A stretch of DNA of 64,000 nt from Candidatus Heimdallarchaeota archaeon (GCA_019056785.1 DXJV01000029.1:64001-128000); one strand, 5' to 3'; shown: positions 56,584 to 61,267, counted from the stretch's first letter. Translations and numbers: made by a program. Notes: a model not told the origin generated them from the letters alone.

Positions 56584-58185
56584 TTATGATAGAAGGAAGG
56601 AAGCATTACTAATAATTGGTGCTCCAACGAGTGATGGTACCAATCCCAAGACGATTATTCCAAGGGCAATAACAATATTAATGAAATTTATGAAACTCAA
56701 ATCCGCGCCTATACCCTTTGGTTGTATAAATGTTGCTTGTGCTGGGGGATTGTCAAAAACAAATTGCTTGAGGAGAGAAAGAAAACCGACTAACAAAAGC
56801 AAAAGAACAAAGATCAATGCAATAACAACGCCGATGAACTCGAGTTTGACTAAGGAAAAAAGAAGGAGATAGATATTCACCCCACCAAATGTTGGAAGAA
56901 GACCAATAAGAGAAGCAAGGCCGATGAGAAAAGTGAAGACAGTGAGAGGATATTCTTTACCAATGCCCTGATAGTTAATTACTTCTTCTTGTGCAGGCCT
57001 TTTCGACAAGAGATGCTCTTTCGCTGTCAATGCAAGATAGCCGGCAAAAAAGACATTAACAATCTGCAGAGCAGTAAAGCCTAAAGATTCTTGCAAAAGC
57101 CCCGATTGCATTACAATAGTACTACTGTCTACAATCATTCCCGTTGCAAACCCTGTAAGAACAATCCCGAGATTTGTAATAAGTGCAAAGATGACAATTT
57201 TCGAAAAGGTTTCTGCGGTTTTCTTTTTCTTAGCAACTTGATAAGAAAATAAGAATACACCTTGAAATGCTGTTAGCAATCCTATAATTAAAAGGACAAA
57301 CGAATAACCATTGTTTGTAAGGACGGTCGGGGAAAAAACTACATACACAACCTTAATGATAGCCAAAAGGGCCAGACCACCTGTGATACTTGCGAAGGTT
57401 TGTTGAATAGTAGCAGAGCTGCCGCTAATGGCCTTTGGCATCCAAAGATTTAGAGTGATAAGATTCGCAAATAAGCCAAACCCAACGATAAATAAAGCAA
57501 TTATAAGATAGATCGCAAACAAGCCATTTTGCGCTTTTACCGCCAGAAGTAGTTCTGGATGGTTTTTAATGTAATCAAGATTTACCGACCCTAGAAAGCC
57601 ATAGCTCAAAATTACTCCTAAGAGGAGAAAGAAGAGTGCTAATGCGATAAGCAGATATGCTTTAACTACTTCTTGTCGTAAAAGCAGTTTATTTTGTTCG
57701 TTTGCCAGTAATAGTATAAGAGAAATACCAACTATCGCCCAGGCTAAAAATATAGTGAAAAGATCATTGGCAATGATTGAAAAATTCATGCCGATGCTAA
57801 AGAAGAGAAGAGAAAGCAATGAAGACAATTGCCGTCGCTGCTCTCTTCTTTTTGTTGTTTCATAAACGAACATTAATATCAGCAAAGTGTTGATAATGAT
57901 AAGCAACCAACCACTGAAACCATTAACCTTCATTTGAACACTGGTAGAAGGGCTATAACCTATTCCTATAGTACTGTTGTAAAAACCATAGAGAGTTTTT
58001 GTAGGGGAAGCCTTCACTTTGAAATTTACTGCAGCAAAAATAGCAGTATTAATTATCATATTTCCTGTGGCCAGTTCTGCTGCAAAATTACTCAGCCATT
58101 TTCGCAAACCAAAAAGGATGATAGCAATGAAGAAGGTTAGAAACATCGGAGAGAGCAACAAGAAATTGATTGAGACTTCAGCCAT
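56584..58185 (-). CDS. Degenerate antiporter-like subunit (NuoN/NuoM/MrpD family)
   Basis: About 14 TM; NDLFTIF, YGFLGSVNL, LWMPKA, LASLIGLLPTFGG; canonical Glu and Lys residues absent. Confidence 0.75.
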   Translation of the reverse strand: MAEVSINFLLLSPMFLTFFIAIILFGLRKWLSNFAAELATGNMIINTAIFAAVNFKVKASPTKTLYGFYNSTIGIGYSPSTSVQMKVNGFSGWLLIIINTLLILMFVYETTKRREQRRQLSSLLSLLFFSIGMNFSIIANDLFTIFLAWAIVGISLILLLANEQNKLLLRQEVVKAYLLIALALFFLLLGVILSYGFLGSVNLDYIKNHPELLLAVKAQNGLFAIYLIIALFIVGFGLFANLITLNLWMPKAISGSSATIQQTFASITGGLALLAIIKVVYVVFSPTVLTNNGYSFVLLIIGLLTAFQGVFLFSYQVAKKKKTAETFSKIVIFALITNLGIVLTGFATGMIVDSSTIVMQSGLLQESLGFTALQIVNVFFAGYLALTAKEHLLSKRPAQEEVINYQGIGKEYPLTVFTFLIGLASLIGLLPTFGGVNIYLLLFSLVKLEFIGVVIALIFVLLLLLVGFLSLLKQFVFDNPPAQATFIQPKGIGADLSFINFINIVIALGIIVLGLVPSLVGAPIISNASFLLS

Positions 58186-58186
58186 T

Positions 58187-60106
58187 TTAACCGAGACCTC
58201 CTACTAAGATTAAGACTGAGGTTAAAACCACCAGTGAAAGTATTGCCCAAATTATGCTGGCAAAGATGGACTTTAGCCGTATCCAAGCAAAAAACCTTTG
58301 AAGAAAATTAAGCGGCTTTCGCAGGAATATTTCGCTTGTTTTATGAAGGTAATAGCCATTATTGATAAGCCGTTCAATACTCACGACAAACTTAGTTGCA
58401 GCAAGTTTAAGGAGAAACGGTCGCTCTGGCTTCCAGTAAAGCACAAAGGCGGCAACAAAAACACTAACAGTAAGTACCAAAAGTATAGGGGAAAGGACAA
58501 TGTCACTAAAGAAGACTATAGGATAGTCCAAAGCATAGATTTTATTCAAAAGACCTGAAAAGAGGAAACTCTCCGGATAATTATAAAAGAGCAGGAAAAT
58601 TCCAGCCACAAGCGACCAGCCTAGAGAGAGGAAGAGAGAAGAGAGAGAGGTTTTACTTATACCTCGGACTACATAATCGCTTGATAATTCTCTCTGCATT
58701 ACTTTTTGAAAAGCACGTACAGTTAAAAATGTCAATACGAAGAAGCATACAATGGCCACAACGAGTATCCCTTTCATAGTGGGGACCCGACTAGTTTTAA
58801 GAGCAGTAAAAAGCATATCACGACTAAAATAAAGGCTTGTTGGGAAAATACCTGCAAAATTTACAATGGCTATTATACCAAGTATAAACAATACCCGATG
58901 CTCTTGCTTCATTCCTGCAACTTTTGGCAAATCAGCCACACGTAACGACTCGAGTATTGCCCCAAAAACAAATGCTACAACAAAGAGAGATGGTAACCCA
59001 ACGATAAGATTGAAGATTGCTGCGACATAACCAACAGTAGACCCCGTACTAAAAGCAAGGAACGAGAAGCTTTGTTGTGCTATAGCTAAACCAATTAAAA
59101 GACGATTGATATTTTTTGTAGCAAAAAGTGTAAGAACGATAAAAAGGAGGGTGATCGCCGCAAACCAACCAATTAACTGTAATACCGAAGCAGAAAACAA
59201 AGGCGTTGCTGTTCCAACTTCTGCTGCACGAGAGTAAAAGAATGGTTTGAATACTAACAATAAGAAAAGCCCACTACTACCAATAGTTGTTGTCGTAAGC
59301 AACATCGAAGCAGGTAAAGGTGTTTTTGTAAGGTCGTTATCTTGCTGTTCGCTTGTTAATGGCCAGAAGAGGAAAGGGACTTGCGCACCTTTTATTAAAG
59401 CACCAAGCGCTAAGAGCATTCTTATGAGAAGTCGCGTATTGGAACTTGAGCCTAAAAGTATCTTTTCCGGTGGAGTCGGCCACAAAGTCAAAAGGTCAGC
59501 CAAATTGGCACTCTTAAAGGAAACAATCATAAAACTAAAACTGAGAAGGATGAGAATGTCAGAGCAAAAATTGATAATCAGGTATCGCTTAGCAGCACTC
59601 GCGGCTTTTTGCCCTTCTTGCCCGGATTTCTTGTACCAATGAGAGATTAAAAAGAAGGCTCCAATGGAGGCAATTTCCAGGCCGCCAAATAACCAGTAAA
59701 GATTATCAGCAAAAATTGCAAAAAGTATTGCTGCTTGTGTCAATAGATAAAAGAACCAATATCTCGTTCTGGAAGAATCGTAACGCATAAAGGAAATAGA
59801 ATATAAAGCTAACAATGCTCCCAGATTTGAAATGATACAAGCAAAGACGATAACCAATTCAGTTAGCCGGATGCCAGCGCTAATACCCGGCAACCATTCA
59901 ACTGTAAAAGAGCCATAAGCATGCAAATGTCTAAGTAGAAACCAAGAGGTTATTGCTGTAGGTAAAAAGATAGTGAAAAACAACGTCCAGTCTCGAGTGC
60001 GGCCTTTAGCTGCAACAGACTCCTCCAATTGGGAGAGTAACAAATTAAAAAGGATGCCGATTAGAGGAAAAAGTATAACAAAGAAAGCAGTAATTGATCC
60101 GTTCAT
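58187..60106 (-). CDS. Degenerate antiporter-like subunit (NuoL/MrpA family)
   Basis: YSISFM...RYW...ADNL...LE...LISHWY...AAKRYLI.N..D, KGAQVPF; C-terminal amphipathic helix plus TM. Confidence 0.82.
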   Translation of the reverse strand: MNGSITAFFVILFPLIGILFNLLLSQLEESVAAKGRTRDWTLFFTIFLPTAITSWFLLRHLHAYGSFTVEWLPGISAGIRLTELVIVFACIISNLGALLALYSISFMRYDSSRTRYWFFYLLTQAAILFAIFADNLYWLFGGLEIASIGAFFLISHWYKKSGQEGQKAASAAKRYLIINFCSDILILLSFSFMIVSFKSANLADLLTLWPTPPEKILLGSSSNTRLLIRMLLALGALIKGAQVPFLFWPLTSEQQDNDLTKTPLPASMLLTTTTIGSSGLFLLLVFKPFFYSRAAEVGTATPLFSASVLQLIGWFAAITLLFIVLTLFATKNINRLLIGLAIAQQSFSFLAFSTGSTVGYVAAIFNLIVGLPSLFVVAFVFGAILESLRVADLPKVAGMKQEHRVLFILGIIAIVNFAGIFPTSLYFSRDMLFTALKTSRVPTMKGILVVAIVCFFVLTFLTVRAFQKVMQRELSSDYVVRGISKTSLSSLFLSLGWSLVAGIFLLFYNYPESFLFSGLLNKIYALDYPIVFFSDIVLSPILLVLTVSVFVAAFVLYWKPERPFLLKLAATKFVVSIERLINNGYYLHKTSEIFLRKPLNFLQRFFAWIRLKSIFASIIWAILSLVVLTSVLILVGGLG

Positions 60107-60531: not shown

Positions 60532-60846
60532 TTAAAGCCTCCTTCTTTTTTCGTTGTTTCTTTGTGGATGGGCAATAAATGAATCAATTTTGAGAAGAAA
60601 CGACGAAGCAACGACACAGATAATCAACAAAAAAGCAACAAGAAATAAATCAAAAACACGTAATGACCACATGGCTTCAGCTAGATTTTTAACCCCGCTT
60701 CCCACAGAACTTACAAGAGCACTAATGTCTGAAAAGACAAAAAAAACAGTGATAAAAATAACAACAAGAAAACTCACTGTTACTATTCCTATCCCTCGAA
60801 TGAACCATTGTGAGATTCTCTTTTGGGTTCGAAGCTTATTACTCAT
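60532..60846 (-). CDS. NuoJ C-terminal-like membrane protein
   Basis: TM, then GVKNLAEAMWSLRVFDLFLVAFLL (cf. NuoJ C-terminal half); position before NuoK; start set at ATG 60846. Confidence 0.55.
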   Translation of the reverse strand: MSNKLRTQKRISQWFIRGIGIVTVSFLVVIFITVFFVFSDISALVSSVGSGVKNLAEAMWSLRVFDLFLVAFLLIICVVASSFLLKIDSFIAHPQRNNEKRRRL

Positions 60847-60862
60847 GCTTTTTTCACTCTCA

Positions 60863-61267
60863 TCATAATTTTCGCATTTCTTTTTGATGTACTCGTTTAG
60901 AACGTATTTTGTAATAATCAACAGCAAAGATGCTGAAACCTATTAATAATAATACAAATAAGAAGAAGGGCCACTTTGGTTGAGAACCTCCTTCCACAAC
61001 ATGAAACACCTGGTAAGAGAAGAATAAGAAGAAAACAAGCATTAGAAATACGACGATTATAATACTATACAGAAAGAAAGGGTTGAATGCCTTTTCCGTT
61101 TCAGGATTAGCTTTTAAAGGGGTGATGCCTTTATGCCCTTGGCTTTTTTCTTTGATTTGTTGCTCCTCTTTTTTCTGCATTGTTAAAGTTATTGCAATTA
61201 AAAGGAGAATCAGTAAGTTTAGGAGGACCATTCCAAAGAGTAAGCCTTCAATCAACAATGTTCTCAT
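60863..61267 (-). CDS. NuoA-like 3-TM membrane protein
   Basis: TM, loop with HKGITP, then FFLYSIIIVVF.MLVFFL and a third TM; first gene of the cluster; start set at ATG 61267. Confidence 0.55.
   Translation of the reverse strand: MRTLLIEGLLFGMVLLNLLILLLIAITLTMQKKEEQQIKEKSQGHKGITPLKANPETEKAFNPFFLYSIIIVVFLMLVFFLFFSYQVFHVVEGGSQPKWPFFLFVLLLIGFSIFAVDYYKIRSKRVHQKEMRKL

Follow-up and report, generated by a model that had tools for sequence, protein, structure and literature searches.

Why would an archaeon keep a complex-I-like membrane arm that has no redox module beside it and from which many of the ion-translocating charges are gone? The question is raised by five genes in a 64,000-nucleotide stretch of a Candidatus Heimdallarchaeota archaeon genome (GCA_019056785.1, DXJV01000029.1:64001-128000; the whole stretch is referred to as the window). 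At window positions 56584-61294 these genes encode a NuoA-like protein (A'), a protein corresponding to the C-terminal half of NuoJ (J'), a NuoK-like protein (K') and two antiporter-type subunits, one NuoL-like (L') and one NuoN/MrpD-like (N'). What defines complex I and the hydrogenases related to it is the coupling of redox chemistry to ion pumping. An original prediction, made from the sequence of the window, took the five genes for a maintained but repurposed complex. We found that the arm coexists with a complete working complex, and that degenerate relatives of NuoC, NuoD and NuoH (C', D' and H') are encoded at two other loci. The explanation we put forward, and to which we give an even chance, is a dispersed, redox-dead and probably non-pumping assembly derived from complex I, in which the five genes supply the membrane arm of a second, catalytically dead hydrogenase paralogue.

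The arm, its working counterpart and its maintenance

The five genes are co-oriented, tightly packed (spacing -1 to 16 bases) and arranged in complex-I-like order, as had been predicted; open reading frames (ORFs), Pfam and profile matches agree on this (Table 1). No NuoH, B, C, D or I gene lies next to the arm, which is likewise in line with the prediction. The flanking genes encode a protein of 888 amino acids (aa), with its stop 26 bp from the start of A', and the PolD large subunit, 87 bp downstream of N'. The PolD gene marks the organism as archaeal. The subunit identities proposed earlier (NuoA, J', K, L and N/M) were recovered by Pfam for L', N' and K' and are indicated by profiles of the lineage for A' and J'. 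All Pfam matches scored above the gathering scores (L', PF00361, 68.8 bits; N', PF00361, 51.2 bits; K', PF00420, 50.9 bits). PF00662 and PF00361 are the only Pfam domains of L', and its best NCBIfam model was NuoL (TIGR01974, 128 bits against a cut-off of 407), matched over model positions 4-592 of 630, a match that covers the lateral-helix and C-terminal anchor region. The AlphaFold2 model of N' (predicted local distance difference test, pLDDT, 82; predicted template modelling score, pTM, 0.87) was compared with known structures by Foldseek, and MrpD, NuoN and MbhH were retrieved with target-normalised TM-scores of 0.82-0.88 at 16-19% identity. MrpD chains ranked on top; NuoN alone gave 0.82-0.86.

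The Pfam search gave no match for A' and J'. Profiles of the orthologues were compared by hhalign with lineage profiles of NuoA, J1, J2, full J and K, NuoJ being split in this lineage into the separate genes J1 and J2. A' matched NuoA over transmembrane helices (TM) 2-3 (69.6%, P 4e-5), J' matched the J2 half, that is NuoJ TM4-5 (87%, P 4e-6, 84 columns, against 1% for J1), and K' matched NuoK (98%), while all cross-pairs of A', J' and K' with the other small-subunit profiles stayed at or below 30%. When a hidden Markov model (HMM) of the lineage's NuoA was run over all ORFs of the genome, A' ranked second (E 0.006), right behind the ordinary NuoA. Orthologues of A' in 10 genomes share 20-26% identity (MAFFT), and BLAST local matches to six relatives share 27-32%. 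A' has a Lys/Glu-rich loop between TM1 and TM2 and a conserved basic C-terminal tail, and K' bears an extra acidic C-terminal tail of about 40 aa. The start of J' was placed where the orthologues (108-115 aa) begin, at the position of Met28; the 131-aa ORF from 60927 would overlap A'. We regard it as established that the five genes encode a paralogous membrane arm of the complex I type.

The original prediction had named a canonical operon elsewhere in the genome as a point to be checked, and a full one is present. The assembly of this genome (G000) measures 2.87 Mb and is 82.5% complete, and contig C41 carries the complete operon A-B-C-D-H-I-J1-J2-K-L-M-N, in which the D subunit has both Ni-Fe cysteine motifs (RVCGIC and DPCFSC). 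Matches to PF00361 were found in this operon and in the arm cluster only. Complex-I-like group-4 [NiFe] hydrogenases of subgroups 4j-4q have been described for Heimdallarchaeia (Appler et al., bioRxiv 10.1101/2024.07.04.601786), and the C41 operon is of this type. Because the complete working operon lies on another contig, the arm is an extra copy and not the sole complex, and its coexistence with a working complex in the same genome is established. The working antiporter-type subunits (C41 42073-45154) show replacements of their own: the TM8 Lys is Glu in the working M subunit and Met in the working N subunit, and in the single N subunit of the operons of two sister families, f2 and f3 (L031, L032, L035-L037), the TM7 Lys is Thr.

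All 11 genomes from the family of the window, representing two genera, have the five arm genes in intact form, with truncations at contig ends only. No frameshift or stop was found in these genomes or in about 25 L' protein clusters (39-65% identity, all 637-641 aa) from assemblies labelled Heimdall or Asgard. Ratios of non-synonymous to synonymous substitution rates (dN/dS) were obtained from G008 and G010, the only genome pair with unsaturated synonymous sites. The values were 0.20 for A', 0.12 for J', 0.11 for K', 0.16 for L' and 0.12 for N', and with D' and H' (0.17-0.18) the primed genes altogether span 0.11-0.20; the twelve ordinary subunits gave 0.06-0.28. Contigs from four independent sediment and vent metagenomes contained 32 substitutions across the stretch, no indel and no stop. 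Single-nucleotide polymorphisms (SNPs) within populations were non-synonymous in 16 cases and synonymous in 14, and all 16 amino acid changes were conservative. We consider it established that the arm is under purifying selection, as the prediction of maintenance without decay implied; the comparison of Asgard orthologue clusters that it proposed, for dN/dS and shared substitutions, also gave losses that are family-wide (next section).

Could the set nevertheless be a relic of a lost respiratory complex that is slowly decaying? In its favour, the evolutionary rate of the primed genes exceeds that of the working copy by a factor of two to three (dN 0.05-0.09 against 0.01-0.07 in the same pair), the SNP ratio within populations is higher, functional residues have been lost and the set is scattered over the genome. 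We hold this to be extremely improbable: dN/dS is far below 1, reading frames are uninterrupted across two genera, L' is of near-constant length in all clusters, the metagenomes show conservative amino acid changes only and no indels, and the AlphaFold model of N' is a confident one.

Charged residues lost and kept

In alignments with two PDB chains, T. thermophilus Nqo12 and M. smegmatis NuoL, L' retains the TM5 Glu and the TM7 Lys; the TM8 His is Thr, the His, His and Lys of TM11 are Asn, Gly and Leu, and the SKD motif is SRD, each as the original prediction had listed. TM12 here carries Arg. Of 24 full-length sequences of the L' family, all have the TM7 Lys and two Asp, 20 have Lys or Arg at the TM12 position and 18 have the TM5 Glu. 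None has the TM8 His or, in TM11, the second His or the Lys, and 14 have the first TM11 His. Two more conserved charges, one Asp and one Lys, are now Asn, and several of the lost positions are now Ser, Thr or Gly.

The losses go further in N'. Relative to P. furiosus MbhH, the TM5 Glu and TM7 Lys are replaced by Ala and the TM12 Lys by Ile, which agrees with the absences predicted for this protein, and in all seven family sequences the TM5 Glu, TM7 Lys, TM8 Lys, TM11 His/His/Lys and TM12 Lys are replaced, mostly by aliphatic residues. Charges at shifted positions do not compensate for these losses in the AlphaFold model of N', in which E366 is the sole buried acid inside the helices; equivalent charges at shifted positions, which the original prediction had named as a refutation, were thus not found. 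In A' a hydrophobic residue takes the place of the TM2 Asp, consistent with the predicted lack of the FDVE acids. K' had been said to keep only its first Glu; the TM2 Glu is present here and in 4/7 family members, but the missing second Glu is not distinctive and carries no information, because the working NuoK of the same genome is without it too. The broader statement that most charges have been lost thus stands for N' and is overstated for L', which keeps the TM5 Glu, the TM7 Lys, the TM12 Lys/Arg and the two Asp. We regard it as established that a canonical proton relay cannot run in this arm, as it is impossible in N' and its chain is broken in L'.

The charges kept by L' raise the alternative of a free-standing five-subunit module, a cation channel or secondary transporter working through L' and perhaps the interface of K', J' and A', with D', H' and C' as unrelated relics. 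The conservation of the TM7 Lys, TM5 Glu, TM12 Lys/Arg and two Asp would suit such a module, the Ser, Thr and Gly at lost positions of L' could line a water wire, the five genes form one compact unit at a single locus in every genome, and Mrp arms are generally known to function without a redox module. Against this, N' offers no charge that could be used, none of the 24 L' sequences retains the TM8 and TM11 links, the first TM11 His excepted, a NuoA-like subunit would have little purpose where an H-type partner is missing, and neither MrpE, F or G nor an MrpA C-terminal domain was found (last section). We judge a free-standing transporter to be unlikely.

Probable partners, also degenerate, at two other loci

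The prediction that the arm has no redox module was right for the arm locus; for the genome it was incomplete, since degenerate NuoC-, NuoD- and NuoH-like genes occur at two other loci. The truncated NuoC-like protein C' matched the NuoC of the lineage by hhalign (97.6%, P 4e-12) and is 38-50% identical among the family genomes. D' and H' are encoded together on a separate contig, where the stop of D' and the start of H' overlap by 4 bases in G000. D' (377 aa) scores 120 bits against part of the PF00346 model. None of the four Ni-Fe cysteines is present in D', a C-terminal extension is missing too, and its aligned active-site positions vary among orthologues. H' (352 aa) matches PF00146 with just 48.8 bits, and several of its E-channel Glu are now Asp while others are lost.

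H' is followed by a gene for a six-helix protein of 207 aa without a known family (T207). Its AlphaFold model (pLDDT 74) retrieved generic helical bundles only with VIA-align (Z up to 9.4) and nothing from the PDB at E <=0.001 with Foldseek. Comparison with the NuoA, J and K profiles by hhalign was negative, the Atlas gave unnamed archaeal clusters only, and homologues were confined to the same Heimdall group.

No NuoB-type paralogue was detected by Pfam or lineage HMMs in the 82.5% complete genome; the NuoB-type matches belong to the working operon, to two hydrogenase small subunits and to a NuoI-NuoB-NuoD fusion. The search for NuoI was uninformative because many ferredoxin-type proteins match, and no NuoI-like paralogue stands out. 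The module of D', H' and C' is redox-dead as well. The I-B-D fusion (671 aa, L051) follows a NuoC-like gene, with no membrane subunits nearby; it was found only in G000 and G011 (70% identity), and the sister families have its parts unfused.

The probable partners follow the arm in range and in tempo. In the window's family (f1) L' and H' are present in 11/11 genomes and C' in 10/11, the one without it being 64% complete, and L', H' and C' are present in 0/29 genomes of five sister families, where the weak matches are ordinary operons. K-L-N matches in these families were considered as distant orthologues and rejected, as the operons that contain them are ordinary ones in which NuoH/A/J and C/D/I/B are present too. 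The G000 versions of A', J', K', L', N', D' and H' share 27-46% identity with those of six relatives; for the twelve working subunits the range is 44-86% and mostly 65-86%. D' and H' (36-45%) diverge at a rate like that of the arm. As to origin, L' (support 92) and N' (98) group in trees with the H-A-J-K-L-N type of the sister families, inside the archaeal clade of the group-4 complexes. Approximately unbiased (AU) tests are also compatible with a grouping with the co-resident operon (p 0.56 and 0.40), and the H and D trees do not resolve the origin of the copy.

Because degenerate and co-distributed C', D' and H' exist elsewhere, the arm is probably not free-standing, and C' is probably a peripheral subunit of the same assembly. 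The content of the loci is complementary, the arm having no H subunit and the D'-H' locus no antiporter-type subunit. In complex I, NuoA surrounds NuoH, and NuoA, NuoJ and NuoK together connect NuoH with the antiporter-like subunits; we know of no role for these three beyond that of a bridge. From the complementary content, the identical range, the identical tempo and the architecture of complex I we infer, leaning slightly in its favour, that the three loci form one complex. For H' paired with A' (alignments A1 and A2), structure prediction of the complex scored 0.30 against a mark of 0.32 and was used as evidence neither way.

In such a complex A' and J' would link H' to K', L' and N' in the manner of complex I, and H' would be capped by D' and C', with T207 perhaps as a further member. 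No electrons would enter, since there is no NuoB-type paralogue, no NuoI-type protein stands out and D' is without metal ligands. Neither redox turnover nor canonical ion pumping would be expected, the latter because the Lys/His/Glu chain is gone in N' and broken in L'. What persists would be a membrane platform, structural or regulatory. This appears to be the likeliest class of function because N' has no ion path, A' and K' have gained conserved cytoplasmic tails, basic and acidic respectively, and the D'/C' cap has been retained. That the role is one of scaffold or regulator, a non-redox and non-pumping platform and not a transporter, is nevertheless a tentative suggestion that we think possible and no better than doubtful.

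The arm could alternatively dock on the working NuoB/C/D/H/I and form an uncoupled isoform that vents reducing power without generating ion-motive force. The same genome encodes the complete working peripheral module that this requires, and an uncoupled isoform would, by inference, explain the loss of pumping residues under selection. The working operon, however, has its own full arm, A' and J' are <20% identical to the working A and J2 that contact NuoH, and dedicated H', D' and C' paralogues exist with the same range and tempo as the arm. Docking on the working module seems to us very unlikely.

Several observations weigh against the dispersed, redox-dead assembly. The three loci are adjacent in no genome or contig examined, the most divergent members included; around the most divergent homologues of L' (P0023, P0025) and of H' (P0125, P0128) the arrangement is split or the contigs are too short. 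Their co-occurrence has little statistical weight because one family represents a single evolutionary origin. A counterpart of NuoJ TM1-3 (J1') was not found with Pfam or lineage HMMs in the genome, and to our knowledge there is no precedent for a NuoD-like subunit without a NuoB-like partner. With the genome 82.5% complete, a B' or I' could sit in unassembled DNA. Some ion conduction is possible, because several Asp persist in H' and L' still has the TM5 Glu, the TM7 Lys and the TM12 Lys/Arg. Transcript or protein evidence for the primed genes was not found; the public runs that contain the stretch include no RNA.

The surroundings of the three loci vary among relatives. The 888-aa gene adjoins A' in G004, G005 and G009 and does not in G006, G008 and G010. 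A conserved CxxC protein of 243-245 aa without a Pfam family (for example L025 15118-15849 and L028 12519-13256) is encoded upstream of A' in every relative whose contig extends that far; in G000 and G009 the 888-aa protein separates it from A', and on one metagenomic contig a 1113-aa protein takes this place. The gene downstream of C', on the same strand, encodes a protein of 792 aa that has no Pfam family; at a distance of about 160-200 bp it is present in 9/10 of the C'-bearing relatives, including the other genus, and in the tenth the contig ends first. The 888-aa and 792-aa proteins show no similarity to each other, and no longin or roadblock domain was detected in the 888-aa or the 243-aa upstream protein. 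A cell-biological and not bioenergetic role of a 'pseudo-complex', in which a membrane-anchored docking or signalling platform stripped of cofactors and ion pathways would perhaps serve the 888-aa and 792-aa proteins as large, lineage-specific cytoplasmic clients, strikes us as distinctly unlikely.

Other variable features concern inserts. The PolD large subunit (loci L026-L029 in relatives) has no intein in G000 or G009 (1166-1167 aa); in G005, G006, G008 and G010 the protein is enlarged by about 470 aa at an insertion close to residue 920, which Pfam identifies in the G005 copy as a LAGLIDADG intein (PF14890, PF14528). Several relatives (L067 8555-9777, L068, L069, L087 8751-9833) have an insert of about 1.2 kb between D' and H', and in L087 this contains a 360-aa opposite-strand ORF without a Pfam family. 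A 339-aa NuoH-like protein (P0128, L088 1498-2517) scored 116 bits with the H' profile, on a scale where the H' family exceeds 170 bits and ordinary NuoH stays below 96 bits; its metagenomic contig is only 2.6 kb long and offers no informative neighbouring genes. The window also encodes a soluble [NiFe] hydrogenase in four genes, resembling a group-3 sulfhydrogenase-type enzyme, with a large subunit (433 aa, PF00374), a small subunit (270 aa, PF01058), an FAD/NAD-binding subunit (316 aa) and a Fer4_22 subunit (361 aa).

Table 1. Coordinates of the arm genes, the candidate partners and other features (window positions unless a contig is given).
Feature	Position	Strand	Basis or remark
A', NuoA-like 3-TM subunit	60863..61294	-	143 aa from TTG 61294 or 134 aa from ATG 61267
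J', 104-aa 2-TM protein, NuoJ C-half (TM4-5)	60532..60846	-	hhalign, orthologue starts
K', NuoK/MrpC-like, 139 aa	60106..60525	-	PF00420, hhalign
L', NuoL-like antiporter-type subunit, 639 aa	58187..60106	-	PF00361, TIGR01974, PDB alignments
N', NuoN/MrpD-like antiporter-type subunit, 533 aa	56584..58185	-	PF00361, AlphaFold2, Foldseek
C', truncated NuoC-like, 136 aa	3562..3972	+	53 kb from the arm; PF00329 23.8 bits, just over cut-off
D'-H'-T207 locus	G000:C100:18483-21362		separate contig
888-aa neighbour	61321..63987	-	without Pfam family; not demonstrated part of the arm
792-aa protein downstream of C'	4134-6512	+	without Pfam family
PolD large subunit	52993-56496	-	
Soluble [NiFe] hydrogenase, four genes	14299-18376	-	
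Working operon A-B-C-D-H-I-J1-J2-K-L-M-N	G000:C41 42073-52632		
NuoC-like gene and I-B-D fusion (L051)	G000:C31:8128-10624		

Comparison with known systems

The working complex has already been published; the linking of the dispersed degenerate pieces and the finding of C' are new here. In the literature, of which our coverage is incomplete, we found no prior description of a complex I paralogue without the charges or without the Fe-S subunits. The set offers a natural experiment on which residues are needed for fold and assembly and which for catalysis, and it calls for caution in Asgard metabolic reconstructions that count Nuo or PF00361 genes as respiratory capacity. It may also exemplify how large membrane machines gain new roles, in the lineage closest to eukaryotes.

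The nearest systems are the group-4 hydrogenases of Heimdallarchaeia, which share with the primed set the subunit families NuoA, C, D, H, J, K, L and N, the lineage and the order of the membrane genes. These hydrogenases have the four Ni-Fe cysteines, the Fe-S subunits NuoB and NuoI, a full NuoJ, most of the TM5/7/11/12 charges and a single operon, whereas the primed set is without these features and is split over three loci. The arm of respiratory complex I (T. thermophilus 4HE8, E. coli 7P61, M. smegmatis 8E9G) is alike in fold and gene order, and L' aligns with it through the lateral-helix region. Compared with it, the arm described here has one antiporter-type subunit besides L' and not two, has half a NuoJ, and is without the central Lys/His/Glu axis and without a quinone or NADH module.

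Mrp antiporters (Mnh/Pha) resemble the arm in having no redox module and in combining a NuoL-like MrpA, a NuoN-like MrpD and a NuoK-like MrpC. They differ in the C-terminal MbhD/MbhE/MnhB-type domains of MrpA, which L' does not have (true MrpA matches are 770-1020 aa long and carry PF13244, PF20501 or PF04039), in the NuoA- and NuoJ-like genes of the arm, and in the charges that Mrp requires and the arm has lost. MrpE, F and G (PF01899, PF04066, PF03334) gave no match at E <=0.1 in the 82.5% complete genome, in a search whose controls responded. An Mrp identity is ruled out by the missing MrpE/F/G together with the missing MrpA C-terminal domains of L'. Ehr (energy-converting hydrogenase-related) complexes reportedly have an Fe-S small subunit, a single operon and conserved antiporter-type residues. 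They are alike in a large subunit without Ni-Fe cysteine ligands, as in D', and differ in that D' has neither an adjacent small subunit nor a detectable small-subunit paralogue. PF00361 proteins have been recruited to non-respiratory tasks in the CO2-uptake systems NdhD3/F3-CupA of cyanobacteria and DabAB; there the charged pathways are kept and the proteins are paired with a carbonic-anhydrase-like protein, and neither holds here. All described members known to us (Mrp, MBH, MBS, Fpo, NDH-1, FHL) keep a redox site or the charged pathways. The eight or nine subunits described here have lost both, yet are under purifying selection beside a working copy, and if they assemble, they would be, as far as we know, the first multi-subunit 'pseudo-enzyme' of this superfamily.

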